DNA of 64,000 bases, taken from NCBI GenBank assembly GCA_964399865.1, contig CAYNRJ010000001.1, forward strand, positions 475,984 to 539,983. Direction: 5' to 3'. Both the position numbers and the translations under genes were made by a program. A model generated the notes under the pieces. It was not told where the DNA came from, made no database searches, and saw only the letters and a program-made list of their open reading frames with translations. Below are positions 21,757 to 48,234 of this stretch, one piece after another. Numbering within the stretch: position 1 is the first letter of the stretch; every line of letters starts with the position of its first letter. This DNA comes from an uncultured Candidatus Saccharibacteria bacterium. GTDB lineage: Bacteria > Patescibacteriota > Minisyncoccia > Phycocordibacterales > UBA2100.

Positions 21757-21929
21757 TAGTCTATACTCCTTCGTGCAAAAAATAGGTTTTTATTTTATTA
21801 CTTGTGGATAAAAACGTTTCCACAAGCCTTAACTCGTCACCTTCTCCCATACGGAGGGAGATATTTAAAACAAGAAGCCGCCCACACTATAGAAGTGTCG
21901 CACTGAGCGGACTTCCTTGTGGTGAGCGG

Positions 21930-22247
21930 CTAGCGCTTGATGGCTTCGAGTCGATTCCATTCCTCGGTGAGAGCGAGGGCTATTTTGGCCCGGACCTTTG
22001 GCGACTGACCGATTGCCATACTGACCATGAGGCAGTAGTCGGCCTGGTCACTACGCTCCATCTTGAACTCGGCTTCGGGAGCCACCTGAGCAGCGATCAC
22101 CTCCATCTGCGCATAGGTCTGAGGCGCGTTGAGGCGAGCTGTCTTGAGTTCACCTCCTGGGTACGTGTCGGTGAGAAACCAGCGCGACCTCTTCTTGCGA
22201 TCAATTCCCTTCCACCGCCAGTCATAACTAAGCTTCAAATTCCGCAC
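21930..22247 (-). CDS. Hypothetical small protein in a high-GC islet
   Basis: 105 aa; GC about 58 %; no recognisable motif. The overlapping plus-strand ORF 21804..22394 looks like low-complexity noise. Confidence 0.35.
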   Translation of the reverse strand: MRNLKLSYDWRWKGIDRKKRSRWFLTDTYPGGELKTARLNAPQTYAQMEVIAAQVAPEAEFKMERSDQADYCLMVSMAIGQSPKVRAKIALALTEEWNRLEAIKR

Positions 22248-22432
22248 GGCTTACCTCCCGATTTGAGCGGCCAATACAATACATCATCCTTCCCCATTGG
22301 GGAAGGCCGCAAAAGGTACGTCATCCAAGGAGGGAGAATTGGTCGGTTCTTAAAGCCTTTGCGAACAAGAACCCCGCGTCAAACCATTATTTGACCCATC
22401 TTTTATACTGACGTAGATTATCGGCGGCGCAA

Positions 22433-22708
22433 TTGTGCTGCCTGATGGAGGAAGTCGTGACTGAGCGCCTGGATAAGCGGCATAGCAAGATGGTCGATGG
22501 GCTCGTCAAAAGCCTCAAGAAGCGGAGACTCATCAAGAAGATCCTCCACAAGCAAGGACTCACGGTCCCGGAACCGCCCCCAACTATCGTTGGAATGGTT
22601 CAGCAGGACTACGACCTCTTCAAGTTCAAGGAGCTCGTGGAGAATCTGGCAACCCTGACAATCAAGCGACTCCGCGATGCTCTACAGATGGAGCGAGTTC
22701 CTGGTTGA
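22433..22708 (+). CDS. Hypothetical small basic protein in a high-GC islet
   Basis: 91 aa (possibly about 72 aa from MVDGL); Lys/Arg-rich; followed by a terminator-like hairpin. Confidence 0.35.
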   Translation: MCCLMEEVVTERLDKRHSKMVDGLVKSLKKRRLIKKILHKQGLTVPEPPPTIVGMVQQDYDLFKFKELVENLATLTIKRLRDALQMERVPG

Positions 22709-22746
22709 CTGCCCATTCTACTTAACCGTCCGTTCGAGAACGAAAG

Positions 22747-22790
22747 GTCGCCCTTCGCTCCTCGTCGGGCGGCTTTCGTTTTTTGCTCTT
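22747..22790 (+). terminator. Putative rho-independent terminator at the end of the high-GC islet
   Basis: GTCGCCC...GGGCGGC stem (one G:U pair) followed by TTTCGTTTTTT. Confidence 0.4.
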
Positions 22791-22834
22791 CTGCCAATGT
22801 AGACATCATATTTACGTCATCATTTGCGCGAGAA

Positions 22835-25419: not shown

Positions 25420-25695
25420 ATGGCAAACAAGATGGATTTGGTAGAGAAAGTGGCAGCAACTATAAACTGCACAAAGGCGGACGCTGAACGAGCTGTTGAA
25501 TCTGTTATCGCAACAATTACTGCATGCCTCAAGAAAGGAGAAGAGGTATCGATCGCAGGCCTTGGTATCTTTGAGGCAAAGACTCGCGCAGGACGCATGG
25601 GCAGAAACCCACGCACAGGTGCAACTATTGAGATAAAGGCAATGAAAGTACCTAAGTTCCGCGCTTCAAAGACTTTGAAGGACGCAATAAAGTAA
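25420..25695 (+). CDS. hup: DNA-binding protein HU
   Basis: 91 aa; 'GLGIFEAKTRAGRMGRNPRTGATIEI...VPKFRASKTLK' HU/IHF signature. Confidence 0.9.
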   Translation: MANKMDLVEKVAATINCTKADAERAVESVIATITACLKKGEEVSIAGLGIFEAKTRAGRMGRNPRTGATIEIKAMKVPKFRASKTLKDAIK

Positions 25696-25752: not shown

Positions 25753-25771
25753 GTGCGGGATGGGAGAATCG
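25753..25771. repeat. 19-nt exact duplicate of the tRNA-Gly(TCC) 3' end (acceptor/T-arm segment), a pseudo-tRNA fragment
   Basis: gtgcgggatgggagaatcg is identical to 25840-25858 (the tRNA 3' terminus plus one flanking nt), 87 bp away in the same orientation. Confidence 0.6.
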
Positions 25772-25840
25772 CCCTAACCTCTCGCCTTCGCATCAAGACG
25801 CACTCATGCGCACTACTTATCCCCTCTTCGTTACACTCTG

Positions 25841-25911
25841 TGCGGGATGGGAGAATCGAACTCCCGACCTCAGTTTGGAAAACTGACGTTTTACCATTAA
25901 ACTAATCCCGC
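25841..25911 (-). tRNA. tRNA-Gly (anticodon TCC)
   Basis: Manual cloverleaf: acceptor GCGGGAT/ATCCCGC, D-stem GTTT/AAAC, anticodon stem TCAGT/ACTGA with loop TTTCCAA, T-arm GGGAG-TTCGATT-CTCCC; no encoded CCA. Coordinates +/-1. Confidence 0.8.
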
Positions 25912-27194: not shown

Positions 27195-27445
27195 TAATAA
27201 TTTCGGGGCGCCGAGAATCGAACTTAAGCCTACTTCCCCTTCGGGGCCACGGATGTGCCCCGCACATCCGGTCAGTTTCTTTGTCGGGCTGCTGGGAATT
27301 TCCCTCGACCTAAGGCTCGCCGTCGCTCACCTTAGTCTGGGCACCGCCTCGCGGTTCGTCCTTCTGGCCTCACATCGCTCCGGCGTTCAATTCCAGACGC
27401 AGGCAAAGTGGGTTTGCCTGCTCACCCCTCATTCACTTCGTTCAA
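27195..27445 (-). ncRNA. GC-rich highly structured non-coding region downstream of tRNA-Pro (possible unclassified ncRNA, or the remnant of an integrated element)
   Basis: No ORF; several strong hairpins on the minus strand (GGATGTGCGGGGCACATCC, CCCCGAAGGGG, GCAGGCAAACCCACTTTGCCTGC); contains a 17-nt tRNA-Pro 3'-end duplicate. The scan excluded RNase P RNA and SRP RNA motifs and did not resolve a tmRNA fold. Confidence 0.3.
27282..27298. repeat. 17-nt exact duplicate of the tRNA-Pro 3' end
   Basis: tcgggctgctgggaatt is identical to 27446-27462; on the minus strand the copy folds as a T-arm/acceptor-like minihelix (GTCGAGGGAAATTCCCAGCAGCCCGAC). Confidence 0.6.
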
Positions 27446-27516
27446 TCGGGCTGCTGGGAATTGAACCCAGTCTACTTGCTCCCAAAGCAAGCGTACTACC
27501 GGTATACGACAGCCCG
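27446..27516 (-). tRNA. tRNA-Pro (anticodon TGG)
   Basis: Manual fold: acceptor CGGGCTG/CAGCCCG (C1:G72, typical of bacterial tRNA-Pro), D-stem GTAT/GTAC, anticodon stem CTTGC/GCAAG with loop TTTGGGA, T-arm CTGGG-TTCAATT-CCCAG; no encoded CCA. Confidence 0.8.
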
Positions 27517-27587
27517 TGCGTCGAGTAAGCATACTAGCACACTCTTAAAGGACATTCCTCCCCTCTCCATGTCCTTTATGATGTCCT

Positions 27588-27989
27588 TTAGATCTCCCCA
27601 TCCAATACCTGTTCAAACAGGCGGCAGCGGGCCGTTTTAGTCGATTCAGACAGTATTACTCCGACCACATCGATTTGGTATTCTCGATCATCACCTGAAG
27701 CCTCCATATATAGGGTCGCCGTTCTGGCAACCTTCCTTAACTTTGACGCATGGACCAATTCCTCAGGCCTGTAGTCCATTTCACGTGAAATGTCGGGCAG
27801 AATTTCACGTGAAATAGCCTTTACCTCTATAAAACGCACCTGGTTATGTATCTCGGCTATTATATCAATCTCTCCCCAGGGCTTTCGGTAGTTCCTCTCA
27901 ATGATCTTGTATCCCTTACCCTCAAGGAACTGACAGGCAATGCTTTCACCTAAGTTGCCGACTTGCCTTCTGTCAGTCCCAACCTTCAT
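27588..27989 (-). CDS. YraN/UPF0102-family putative endonuclease
   Basis: 133 aa; 'GNLGESIACQFLEGKGYKIIERNYR...GEIDIIA...VRFIEVKA' matches the UPF0102 pattern; the CDS itself contains two copies of a 14-bp palindrome. Confidence 0.65.
   Translation of the reverse strand: MKVGTDRRQVGNLGESIACQFLEGKGYKIIERNYRKPWGEIDIIAEIHNQVRFIEVKAISREILPDISREMDYRPEELVHASKLRKVARTATLYMEASGDDREYQIDVVGVILSESTKTARCRLFEQVLDGEI
27778..27815. promoter_or_regulatory. Two copies of the perfect palindrome ATTTCACGTGAAAT (27778-27791 and 27802-27815) inside the yraN-like CDS
   Basis: Each encodes the ISRE(I/M) peptide in-frame; a third copy lies at 28049-28062 in the upstream intergenic region. Confidence 0.5.
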
Positions 27990-28048: not shown

Positions 28049-28062
28049 ATTTCACGTGAAAT
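28049..28062. promoter_or_regulatory. Third copy of the ATTTCACGTGAAAT palindrome, about 60 bp upstream of the yraN-like start; candidate operator
   Basis: Exact 14-bp palindrome with a CACGTG core, in a 420-bp AT-rich ORF-free region. Confidence 0.45.
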
Positions 28063-28410
28063 GTAGCAAATATCGTAACTACGTAACATAAAATATTCAT
28101 GGACAAGGTAACGCCGCTCTGTGGGCATTATCTCTATATTTCAAGCCATTTTTCTAGGAATATACTCAAATCCCTATAGGATAAAGACACCTAAGGTACG
28201 TATTTTCATGTCCTTTATCCCCATATCCACAGACTTTTCCACAGTTTCTAAGGCTTTTTCATGGTTATTAGTTCCAAAGAGTCTGTTAGATCGGTAGTTC
28301 TCGAGACAATTCGTCCTTGATGTCCTTTAGAAAACAACTCCGGTGATTTGTCAATACTGGAACACAATTTATCCTTGACCGAAAGACTCGTGATGTACTA
28401 GGTTTGCATC

Positions 28411-32827: not shown

Positions 32828-33742
32828 CTAAGAGCGACGTCTTTTGCCGTGAAATGCTTTGTGCACTTCGCGAAGATGTTTGTCTGTGACGTGCGTATAA
32901 ATTTGTGTTGTCGCGATATTCGCGTGTCCTAAAAGTGCTTGGACTGAACGCAGGTCAGCACCTCCTTCGAGTAGATCAGTCGCAAATTGGTGGCGAATAA
33001 TGTGGGGGCTCACTTTTCGCGTGATGCCGGCTTTCACTGCATATCTTTTTACGATCCTTTGCACTGTTCGGACACTCAGGCGTGGAGCATCTTTATCATT
33101 TTTTCCAGGTGCTCCGCTCCCCACGAATAACGCTTCGCCCATATCGCTTCGCTTCTTTAGATATTCAGCGACTGCTTTCTTTGCTGAGGGAGAAAGAAAC
33201 ACTACACGAACTTTCTCACCCTTGCCTCGGACAGAAAATTCATCTCGCGTAAGATCAATGTCTGCATTCAGGGAACATAGTTCCGAGACGCGGAGCCCGG
33301 TCGAGAATAAAAGCTCGAGTATCGCACGGTCCCTAAGCGCAGAGTCGGATTCTCCAACGGGCGCTTTCATCAGACGCTCAAGCTCGTCGGAGGTAATAAG
33401 ATCCAAGTCTCTCGAACCTACTTTCGCGAGCTCGATCTTTTCTGGTTGAAGAGAAACGACATCGATCTTGCGTAAATATTTTAAGAACGCACGAATAGCG
33501 ATCATGTAGTAATTCTGCGTTTTCTTTTTCATTCCTCCTCCTACGCCCGCTTGTCGATTAAGCCACATGCGAAATTCGCGCACAGCAGATTCTGTTACCT
33601 TCGCTGGAGAGGTTATCTTTGTCTGTGCAAGAAAACGGGTGATGTAATGATCATAATTCTCAACAGTCTTTATACTCCTACCTTTTTCTATCTCGAGATA
33701 TTCGAGGAATTGAGTTTTGAGCGCCTTAAGATCCGTTGCCAT
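32828..33742 (-). CDS. Tyrosine site-specific recombinase (XerC/XerD-like)
   Basis: ORF 32828..33835 trimmed to MATDLKALK; catalytic region 'HIIRHQFATDLLEGGADLRSVQALLGHANIATTQIYTHV' (R...H-x-x-R...Y). Confidence 0.8.
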   Translation of the reverse strand: MATDLKALKTQFLEYLEIEKGRSIKTVENYDHYITRFLAQTKITSPAKVTESAVREFRMWLNRQAGVGGGMKKKTQNYYMIAIRAFLKYLRKIDVVSLQPEKIELAKVGSRDLDLITSDELERLMKAPVGESDSALRDRAILELLFSTGLRVSELCSLNADIDLTRDEFSVRGKGEKVRVVFLSPSAKKAVAEYLKKRSDMGEALFVGSGAPGKNDKDAPRLSVRTVQRIVKRYAVKAGITRKVSPHIIRHQFATDLLEGGADLRSVQALLGHANIATTQIYTHVTDKHLREVHKAFHGKRRRS

Positions 33743-33847
33743 TCCTCTAAGTATGCCATGTCGCACAACATAGATTGTCCCGACACATGTCTGTGTCGGA
33801 AAATCTGACGATATTGTGCAACATATACGTCGCACAATATCGACTCC

Positions 33848-46878: not shown

Positions 46879-47655
46879 ATGGGAAGAAAACTCGGCCAGC
46901 ATTTCTTGAAGGGCACATGGGCAGCTCGCGCTCTCGTCAACGCGGCTAAGATAACCCCGGACGATGTCGTTCTTGAAATCGGACCTGGAAAAGGCGCGCT
47001 CACAAAGGAACTTTTGCAGACCGGTGCAAAGGTAGTCGCGGTAGAGAAAGATGGATCTCTCGTAGAAATTCTTTCTAACACATTTCCATCAGAGATCTCC
47101 TCGGGCGCGCTTTCAATCATCTCTGGAGATATTCGCGACTTCGATCCGACGGCGCATGGACTTCAAAGCGGAAAGTATGTTCTCGCCGCAAACATTCCTT
47201 ACTACATAACAGGGGAGATACTCCGAGCATTTCTTTCTACCGACTCCCAGCCCCGCACCATAGCGCTTCTAATTCAGAAGGAAGTTGCACAAAGAATTAT
47301 TTCTAAACAGGAGTCGATTCTTTCTTTGTCCGTCAAAGCATATGGGAACCCAAAGATCGCGGTCAAAGTTCCGCGTGGAAATTTCTCTCCACCTCCTGCA
47401 GTAGATTCGGCGATACTTGTAGTCGAAAACATCTCAAAATCTTTCTTCTCCGATATACAAGAAGGGGACTTCTTCAAGATCGTACGACTGGGATTCTCTT
47501 CAAAGAGAAAACTGCTCAGTGGAAACCTCGCGCACGGTGGCTACGAAAAATCTGCAATCGCTGATGCATTCACGAGCTGCGAGATCCCAGAGAAAGCGCG
47601 CGCAGAAACTGTTCCGCTCGCTAAATGGAAGTTGCTGGTGCAGAGATTGCGCTAA
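46879..47655 (+). CDS. rsmA: 16S rRNA (adenine1518/1519-N6)-dimethyltransferase RsmA/KsgA
   Basis: 'LGQHFL', 'VLEIGPGKGALT' SAM-binding motif, 'ANIPYYIT' KsgA signature. Confidence 0.85.
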   Translation: MGRKLGQHFLKGTWAARALVNAAKITPDDVVLEIGPGKGALTKELLQTGAKVVAVEKDGSLVEILSNTFPSEISSGALSIISGDIRDFDPTAHGLQSGKYVLAANIPYYITGEILRAFLSTDSQPRTIALLIQKEVAQRIISKQESILSLSVKAYGNPKIAVKVPRGNFSPPPAVDSAILVVENISKSFFSDIQEGDFFKIVRLGFSSKRKLLSGNLAHGGYEKSAIADAFTSCEIPEKARAETVPLAKWKLLVQRLR

Positions 47656-47845
47656 ATGTTGCTTTCTACGTCACAAATAATTTCTATTTGTTACTTCGAA
47701 GCCACCGTCACTAAGCATTTTGTTCGCGCTACACGCTCCAAAATACTAAGTGCGCCGGCCCGACCTCAGGATTTTGCTCATCTAATGAGCAAAATATCCT
47801 TCCGGTTCAGTAGCGCATATCGCAGAGTACGCAGGTACTCTGCGA

Positions 47846-48184
47846 TTATTTACTACTGCCCATCATTGTAATGATCGTGCCCGAGTACGTGATGATAGGA
47901 CGAACACTAAAGAAGCAGTAATACGGAGCGCCCGATAGGCCGAGCACCCACTGCCCAGCGTGACGCGGCGGACCGTACTCATATGTTTTTGTTCTCACGG
48001 TCCACACATACGCGCCGCCCCGTGGCGGTCCCAAGCGAGCGTAAATGGTTGAGTTATGAATACAGGGAAGTACAATCCTTGCCTGGCCCCCGACGGGAAA
48101 CGCGTGAGTAATATAGGGGATTGCAGAAAAAATAATGGTGAATGCGACGATACATGTCCGCAAGCGGAGTGACATATTGCGCAT
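47846..48184 (-). CDS. Doubtful small ORF (possible small secreted protein) in a 580-bp region with raised GC and palindromes
   Basis: 112 aa with an N-terminal hydrophobic stretch; overlapped by other small ORFs on both strands; no motif. May be non-coding. Confidence 0.2.
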   Translation of the reverse strand: MRNMSLRLRTCIVAFTIIFSAIPYITHAFPVGGQARIVLPCIHNSTIYARLGPPRGGAYVWTVRTKTYEYGPPRHAGQWVLGLSGAPYYCFFSVRPIITYSGTIITMMGSSK

Positions 48185-48234
48185 TGTACCACCGCACTAC
48201 TGTTCATTGACGAGGGTTCCTGTAAACTTTCTTT

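Follow-up and report, generated by a model that had tools for sequence, protein, structure and literature searches.

Two tandem units built from tRNA 3' ends downstream of a Patescibacteria tRNA-Pro gene, one of them a nearly intact member of an apparently uncatalogued family of folded elements

A non-coding segment (27195-27445) lies 3' of the tRNA-Pro(UGG) gene in a 64,000-nt stretch of the genome of an uncultured Candidatus Saccharibacteria bacterium (GenBank assembly GCA_964399865.1, contig CAYNRJ010000001.1, positions 475,984 to 539,983; the whole stretch is referred to below as the window). The segment is made up of two tandem units, each derived from tRNA 3' ends. The unit adjoining the tRNA gene (unit 1, 'type A', 27284-27445, minus strand), delimited by a family covariance model (CM) and a 17-nt copy of the tRNA 3' end, is a nearly intact, slightly decayed member of a large family that is found in Paceibacteria (Patescibacteria), 3' of tRNA and transfer-messenger RNA (tmRNA) genes, and that appears to be uncatalogued. 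The unit beyond it (unit 2, 'type B', 27198..27283, minus strand) is, to judge from its sequence, an older and decayed copy of a tRNA-Pro 3' half. On balance, and by a modest preference, unit 1 is read here as a dispensable, passenger-like family member in the tRNA trailer, with arms copied from its neighbour, and unit 2 as an old tRNA-Pro remnant. The original prediction for this segment had drawn attention to a duplicated tRNA 3' end within GC-rich, hairpin-dense DNA, and had offered either a leftover of a small integrated element or an unclassified structured non-coding RNA (ncRNA) as explanations; the observation is real, and its two interpretations are each right in part.

The tRNA-Pro(UGG) gene (27446..27516, minus strand), called by ARAGORN and matched by the Rfam tRNA model with 59.2 bits, has no encoded CCA and carries the allele CGGGCTG...CTGGGTTCAATTCCCAGCAGCCCGA. 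Its 3' end, TCGGGCTGCTGGGAATT (27446-27462), is an exact 17-mer present in two copies in the window, the chance expectation for such a match in 64 kb being ~1e-5; the second copy, predicted at 27282-27298, is indeed exact and lies 2 nt away, at 27284-27300. Unit 1 begins at the tRNA-Pro 3' end, and 145 nt separate the two direct repeats. Read in the sense of the minus strand, it opens with a leader, UUGAACGAAGUGAAUGA (27429..27445), which is identical at 17/17 positions to that of L018 (L-numbers denote comparison loci), and whose motif GAACGAAGUGA recurs immediately 3' of the tRNA in many family members. The leader is followed by the P0 5' strand GGGGUG (27423..27428), the complement of the copied acceptor 3' strand with one mismatch to the present allele, and by hairpin 1 (27399..27421), a 9-bp stem set at the acceptor/T-stem junction of the 5' arm, with the loop CCCAC here and CUGC in most members. 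The P1 5' strand UCUGGAAUUG (27388..27397), identified by CM alignments and by covariation in helix 1, is the complement of the tRNA T-loop and T-stem 3' strand. It leads into the P2/P2a/P2b arm (27346..27384), which contains a conserved CGGAG...CGAG internal loop and is partly mismatched in P2b, and then into the P3 arm (27302..27341), whose loop GAGCGACGGCGAG (27316-27328) is nearly invariant family-wide. The unit closes with IR-R (27284..27300), the exact 17-nt tRNA-Pro 3'-end copy, which extends from T-loop position 55 to the discriminator and provides the 3' strands of both P1 and P0.

Membership of unit 1 in the family is borne out by a full-length CM match, by its position next to the tRNA on the same strand with a copy starting in the T-loop, and by its split complementary 5' arm. 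The model R2, built from a seed of 41 metagenome sequences with the window left out, matches the window at 27290-27398 over its full length (model positions 1-108) with 88.9 bits and an E value of 1.6e-22. Signs of decay in the window copy are a bulged C in P1 (CUGGAAUU/AAUUCCCAG), several mismatches in P2b, one mismatch in P0 (GGGGUG/CAGCCC) and the unusual hairpin-1 loop.

Several of the earlier statements on the segment hold up in the light of this anatomy, including the GC content of about 60% (measured as 0.58 for 27250-27499) and the presence of further perfect hairpins, which were found at 27399-27421 (9 bp), 27250-27270 (9 bp) and 27309-27335 (6 bp, CTAAGG/CCTTAG). The T-arm/acceptor-like minihelix proposed for the 17-nt copy fares differently, since GTCGAGGGAAATTCCCAGCAGCCCGAC forms merely a weak local hairpin of 3-4 bp; in the family consensus, its bases are the 3' strands of P3, P1 and P0, with distant partners at 27388-27397 and 27423-27428. 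The segment had also been said to lack an open reading frame (ORF): a 91-aa ORF overlapping the tRNA is present at 27253..27528 on the plus strand, with no credible gene, and a coding function was rejected, this frame being the only ORF. The unclassified structured ncRNA co-transcribed with tRNA-Pro is a description that fits unit 1, which belongs to a large covarying family with no Rfam entry and has no terminator between itself and the tRNA.

The fold of the family was defined with metagenome sequence sets (alignments A6 and A7), which were used in place of MAFFT alignments of the first few relatives (A2-A5), these being too inconsistent in the variable hairpins. For A6, which comprises the window element and 42 metagenome members, RNAalifold yielded 31 pairs, 25 of them with compensatory changes. 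The pairing cells amounted to 90.2%, compared with 67.3% in shuffled alignments (a value of 90.2% was reached in 0/500 shuffles) and 31-45% in slid controls, and the covariation score was 0.635, compared with 0.22 in shuffles and 0.07-0.17 in slid controls. G-U pairs outnumber A-C pairs (54 vs 26), an imbalance that speaks for the tRNA-sense strand being the one that folds.

The consensus is a three-way-junction core of about 90-110 nt closed by a long helix. The 3' strand of this closing helix copies the final 17-22 nt of the adjoining gene, beginning at T-loop position 54-56 and ending 1-3 nt beyond the discriminator; opposite it stands a 5' strand with the reverse-complementary sequence, interrupted by hairpin 1 at the point where the acceptor and T stems meet. 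P1 pairs a T-stem 5'-like strand and AAUCG with CGAUU and the T-stem 3' strand, and its sequence tracks that of the adjacent tRNA. The junction strands J1/2 and J2/3 read GAA(A/C) and GG(U/G)G, P2, P2a and P2b carry the conserved CGGAG/CGAG internal loop, and P3 ends in the nearly invariant loop already described. Hairpin 1 occurs in 62/78 members with a modal stem of 9 bp, a CUGC loop in 27 and 53 distinct stem sequences. A P0 strand, which complements the acceptor 3' strand with no more than one mismatch, is found 23-25 nt upstream of P1 in 24/56 members, and is often complementary also to the discriminator and the next 1-2 genomic nucleotides. Where a non-Watson-Crick pair in the tRNA acceptor stem allows the two to be told apart, P0 matches the reverse complement of the 3' strand and does not reproduce the tRNA 5' strand (5/5 cases). 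The 5' arm is thus the tRNA 3' end copied in inverted form, with hairpin 1 splitting it. The idea that the mature tRNA templates the arm, in the manner of a primer-binding site, was rejected because the arm complements genomic nucleotides past the discriminator and not CCA. The hairpin-1 loop CUGC and the P2b loop AGCA are complementary in their majority forms, but a kissing interaction of the two was also rejected, as no covariation was seen by eye in the variants.

The extent of the family was gauged with a metagenome scan for the 5' arm motif joined to the P3 loop, which gave at least 120 matches, 80 loci being examined. In 57 of these 80 the element lies directly 3' of a tRNA gene and on the same strand, at least 26 isoacceptors being represented, and most of the 57 contain a 17-nt copy of the 3' end of their own tRNA with 0-2 mismatches. 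Four other loci lie 3' of tmRNA genes and copy the tmRNA 3' end (e.g. L202 2400-2765, L161 2603-3175 and L187), and the association is thus with genes ending in a T-arm and acceptor stem in general. Among the rest are two loci that follow tRNA-like 3' ends not called by ARAGORN and three chance matches in coding sequence; several of the 80 loci are members of tandem arrays. In L223 (2435-3445), Val-CAC, Pro-CGG and Ala-CGC tRNAs stand in a row, each followed by its own tailored unit, suggesting that the elements serve as spacers in a probable polycistronic tRNA transcript. The covariance model R1 gave 97 matches in the metagenome loci and 35 in 80 syntenic genome loci, none of which was in its seed and one of which is L018, with 93.5 bits.

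Known families offer no match. Against the segment, Rfam at E <= 10 returned only the tRNA itself and noise; against the window, eight relatives and a canonical member, at the gathering threshold and at E <= 10, it returned only tRNA, tmRNA and noise; and Rfam 15 gave no family at E <= 10 for the canonical member. No description of the family was found in the literature, including a query with the motif strings. No Rfam family explains the segment, and the segment occurs in many relatives. Outside the family stands an unrelated core ('type C'), seen in L050, L065, L072 (these after tRNA-Gly) and L220, which consists of GAAUCGAAGCC, a hairpin and then GGGGUACUGAAACUGUAAG; its arms follow the same logic, with an inverted and a direct copy of the tRNA 3' end, and L072 has two tandem units.

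Unit 2 comprises a leader, hairpins, a degenerate T-arm and an acceptor 3' strand, all on the minus strand: a perfect 9-bp hairpin (27250-27270), the mini-hairpin CCCCGAAGGGG (27236-27246), the degenerate T-arm (27211-27227), and the acceptor 3' strand with discriminator (27203-27210). Its terminal stretch, GTTCGATTCTCGGCGCCCCGA (27203-27223), agrees at 21/21 positions with the 3' end of the tRNA-Pro allele that is commonest in Kaiserbacteria, and not with that of the window's own tRNA. Remnants of the variable loop and anticodon stem are also held in the unit, the direct repeat starting in the anticodon loop; a D arm and a 5' acceptor strand are lacking, and ARAGORN does not call the unit as a tRNA. 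Its end lies 8 nt from the stop codon of the protease, at the tRNA end point of insert-free relatives, suggesting that the end of unit 2 marks the end of the ancestral tRNA-Pro gene. Type B units also occur 3' of tRNA-Pro in L005, L019, L025, L068 and L077, the hairpin of L068, GGATGTGCGGGGCACATCC, being exactly the same. The alleles of tRNA-Pro(UGG) vary between lineages by paired acceptor/T-stem changes (CGGGGCG, CGGGCCG, CGGGCTG and CGGGGTG), and downstream copies at times keep an allele other than that of the present tRNA, as in unit 2 of the window, L005, L020 and L239. There are hints here that the repeats record, or take part in, tRNA allele replacement.

The genomic setting is conserved. 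Among the products of the flanking genes in the window are RNase Y, an S1-type protease, a YraN-like protein and the CCA-adding enzyme; by these genes and their homologues, the window belongs to Candidatus Kaiserbacteria (Paceibacteria, Patescibacteria). A set of 80 protease-encoding genome loci share one gene order, with tRNA-Gly(UCC), the protease, tRNA-Pro(UGG), and tRNA-Gly(GCC) with tRNA-Arg. In the insert-free relatives L003, L004, L014, L017 and L024, the protease stop lies 3-23 nt from the tRNA-Pro 3' end, and the 251-nt spacer of the window is therefore an insertion relative to them. Spacers of 150-250 nt are present in L008, L009, L018, L021, L022 and L012; these end with a 13-19-nt copy of their own tRNA-Pro 3' end, beginning at T-loop position 54-56, and share internal motifs of unit 1 with the window. 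Two Logan contigs that encode an identical YraN protein (L001 and L002) both end inside tRNA-Pro, the assemblies breaking at this locus.

Occupancy is patchy across the 80 loci and the window, where an exact copy of the tRNA's own 3' end (at least 11 nt, within 400 nt downstream) accompanies 37 of 176 tRNAs (15 Gly-UCC, 15 Pro, 5 Arg and 2 Gly-GCC). Units behind different tRNAs have one common architecture, the orthologous tRNA-Pro site holds three subfamilies in different lineages, and truncated, mutated and internally deleted copies occur, as do tandem arrays. To the L018 element the window element shows 76% identity, and to those of L008 and L009 62-64%, though the proteases of L008 and L009 are closer to the window's. 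The window itself holds two further relatives. An internally deleted relative of unit 1 (25753..25839, minus strand) follows tRNA-Gly(UCC) (25840-25911) and ends with a 19-nt tRNA-Gly 3'-end copy (25753-25771); beyond it lie a bidirectional terminator and a convergent HU gene (25420..25695). A solo divergent member with no adjacent tRNA (47691..47843, minus strand; 19 bits with R2 at 47723-47819) has a CUGC-loop hairpin followed by a core like those of the L012 and L022 elements, and was assigned to subfamily A3 by eye. It sits between ksgA (46879..47655) and a 112-aa ORF without Pfam match (47846..48184), in a stretch of ~580 nt (47656-48234) with no supported gene and no Rfam match.

How such a passenger would persist next to a tRNA gene can be outlined, though the steps that follow are drawn from sequence. 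Unit 1 would be transcribed as a 3' trailer or spacer of the tRNA. No terminator-like site, that is, no hairpin with a T-run after it, was found in 27195-27445, and co-transcription in the window is inferred from this absence of a terminator between tRNA and element. The trailer would then fold on itself, keeping the anti-tRNA arm off the tRNA, and the folded unit would be cut away during tRNA processing. The arms are probably held matched to their neighbour by copying at the DNA level, conceivably through gene conversion between the direct repeats combined with template switching within the inverted repeat. The element thus described appears dispensable for the tRNA, and seems to be gained, replaced, duplicated and lost like a passenger, possibly by mobility of its own.

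A number of points weigh against this account. The long-term conservation of structure and loops would be the pattern of a host-useful RNA; copies in one genome are old and diverged, and their structure is under long-term selection. Core identity is 0.64 within a locus and 0.60 between loci, and similarity within a locus is thus barely above that between loci, with no sign of recent bursts as in typical miniature inverted-repeat transposable elements (MITEs). A canonical terminator stands between tRNA and element in many members, which argues against efficient co-transcription there, and no mobility enzyme or autonomous version was found in a survey of 264 tRNAs. Transcription, folding and processing are read from sequence, and the arm-copying mechanism is a conjecture.

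The strongest competitor, which we regard as possible but less probable than a passenger element, is an RNA module that benefits the host in its tRNA metabolism. Its three-way junction would bind a protein or small ligand, and, in variants of the idea, the closing helix would compete with the tRNA 3' end for the anti-tRNA arm, or the unit would act as tRNA-shaped punctuation or a processing site. The maturation or stability of single tRNAs and of tmRNA would in this way be coupled to a signal. Such a role would be in keeping with the strong covariation and the junction and loop nucleotides that are nearly invariant over a whole bacterial class, with the low similarity among copies in one genome, with arms tailored to each tRNA down to the flanking nucleotides, and with the use of units as spacers inside the tRNA cluster of L223. 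It sits less well with the close relatives whose orthologous tRNAs are without the element, with the finding of a copy at just 37/176 tRNAs of the syntenic loci, with the frequency of decayed and truncated copies and of terminators placed before the element, and with the condition of the window copy itself, which has the P1 bulge, the P2b mismatches and an altered hairpin-1 loop.

A precedent for a host role is RtT, an element of E. coli that has been tied to tyrT transcript processing and to the stringent response, which it probably modulates, its mode of action being unknown (10.1101/2024.07.17.603846). At the E. coli locus analyzed here (L285, NC_000913 1286000-1288000), Rfam RtT (RF00391) finds four units with 133-137 bits. 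The tyrT repeats of E. coli each contain the tRNA-Tyr 3' end, as was also verified in the E. coli sequence. Three copies of the 19-nt tRNA-Tyr 3' end occur downstream of tyrV at a spacing of 178 nt, and each RtT copy has a 10-nt inverted complement, GGGGAAGGAT (a tRNA-Tyr T-stem/acceptor segment), ~100 nt upstream; the RtT unit folds with the pairing of GGGGAAGGAT as its closing helix. Like members of the Patescibacteria family, RtT follows a tRNA gene in the same orientation, and its unit ends with a 17-19-nt tRNA 3'-end copy starting from the T-loop. In both, a multi-hairpin core is closed by an inverted complement to the T-stem 3' strand, located ~100 nt upstream, and the units form tandem arrays, one RtT unit lying between the two tRNA genes. 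The RtT hairpin CGAGCGCCAGCGAG, with the loop CGAGCGNCNGCGAG, also resembles the family P3 and its loop.

By contrast, RtT is seen here only at the E. coli tRNA-Tyr locus, its copy includes the encoded CCA, and it carries the small tpr ORF, while the family belongs to another phylum, where it accompanies tmRNA and no fewer than 26 species of tRNA, and differs from RtT in its core and in its 5' arm, which is split and bears hairpin 1. Model R1 scores RtT at 8 bits, on the CGAGCGNCNGCGAG hairpin only, and the RtT model (gathering threshold 45 bits) gave no match at E <= 10 on the window, L202 or eight relatives. In construction, RtT thus comes nearest to the family among known elements, but none of the tests run here makes it a homologue. 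As a speculative extension, which we hold only tentatively, the units and RtT could form one widespread class of tRNA-tailored RNAs, in which a ligand- or protein-binding junction is clamped by the copied helix, or else represent an arm-rewriting mobile element. If the former is true, the clamped module would act specifically on the maturation or stability of the adjacent tRNA or tmRNA; if the latter, a new kind of mobile element would be at hand, with arms rewritten from whichever tRNA gene adjoins the landing site.

An improbable alternative is that the repeats are attL/attR scars of tyrosine-recombinase elements that entered tRNA-Pro at its T-loop and anticodon loop and whose bodies were later deleted, with no role as RNA. 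The att duplication put forward in the original prediction does have a basis in the data, as the direct repeats of the tRNA 3' part, which start in the T-loop in the case of unit 1 and in the anticodon loop in that of unit 2, extend a few nucleotides beyond the tRNA end, filled and empty sites both exist among relatives, and the distal copy sits at the tRNA end position of the empty sites. The T-loop and anticodon loop are reportedly the sublocations favoured by integrases that target tRNA genes. A Phage_integrase-family gene is located 5 kb away (32828..33835), but has the domain make-up of a XerC/D-type housekeeping recombinase. Unlike att duplications, the repeats are just 110-170 nt apart with no recombinase between them. 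No version bearing an integrase was seen among 264 tRNAs, where, arrays aside, no tRNA 3'-end copy was present more than 400 nt downstream, and a large integrated element was rejected on that ground; the 145 nt between the window's repeats contain no recombinase or other cargo. Neither the core nor the type B motif was found on any viral contig, and an origin from phage attP was likewise discarded, scans of viral contigs having given chance matches in coding sequence or nothing. As a full account the att model falls short, because it leaves unexplained the inverted copy and the conserved core; these, with hairpin 1 and the covarying three-way junction, are not expected of att arms.

Two further types of known system resemble the family in part. 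MITE-type repeats, such as the Correia elements of Neisseria, form hairpins in transcripts and share with the family a small size, a lack of coding capacity, inverted repeats at the borders and a patchy distribution, but a MITE identity was rejected because the family's arms come from the neighbouring tRNA and are not element-specific, the copies in a genome are diverged, and structural covariation is strong. The tRNA-like processing signals (mascRNA at the MALAT1 3' end, the tRNA-like domain of tmRNA, and YrlA) share with the family the order of an acceptor-like helix, a central hairpin and a T-stem-like helix, and both adjoin RNAs handled by tRNA-processing enzymes. In the family, however, the discriminator and following nucleotides are paired, leaving no free NCCA-type end, and the T-loop is replaced by a three-way junction; Rfam gave no matches beyond noise to families of the mascRNA, tmRNA tRNA-like domain or YrlA type.

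A divergent housekeeping RNA (tmRNA including permuted forms, RNase P RNA, signal recognition particle (SRP) RNA or 6S RNA), or a set of terminator hairpins between convergent genes, is very improbable: the GC-rich hairpins between convergent genes and the T-arm-like sequence at 27211-27227 would suit it, but, in agreement with the earlier failure to find RNase P or SRP RNA or to resolve a tmRNA fold, cmscan against Rfam gave none of these families at E <= 10 and ARAGORN called no tmRNA, the third pair of GGGGUG/CGCCCC is G-C and not the G-U of G3-U70, no hairpin is followed by a T-run, and the family model and the tRNA-Pro remnant account for the whole segment.

Elsewhere in the window, a stretch of about 1 kb upstream of clpP (21757-22834) contains dubious ORFs only, one of them 196 aa long and without Pfam match, and gave no Rfam match at E <= 1; an RNA gene that has escaped recognition or a gene in decay may be present there. 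A palindrome, ATTTCACGTGAAAT, is found in three copies (at 27778-27817 and 28049-28064), two copies lying inside the yraN-like gene and one upstream of it, and looks like an operator-type repeat.

For decades RtT stood as a puzzle confined to one tRNA locus of E. coli, and many more elements built likewise are now indicated. The family described here, found behind tmRNA and most species of tRNA across a major lineage of uncultivated bacteria, has hundreds of diverged copies whose covariation defines the fold, and thus provides a comparative handle on elements that copy tRNA ends, as well as a candidate new Rfam family. It raises the question of what keeps both arms matched to the neighbouring tRNA. 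For genome annotation, the units explain GC-rich 'non-coding' spacers and pseudo-att repeats beside Patescibacteria tRNA genes.

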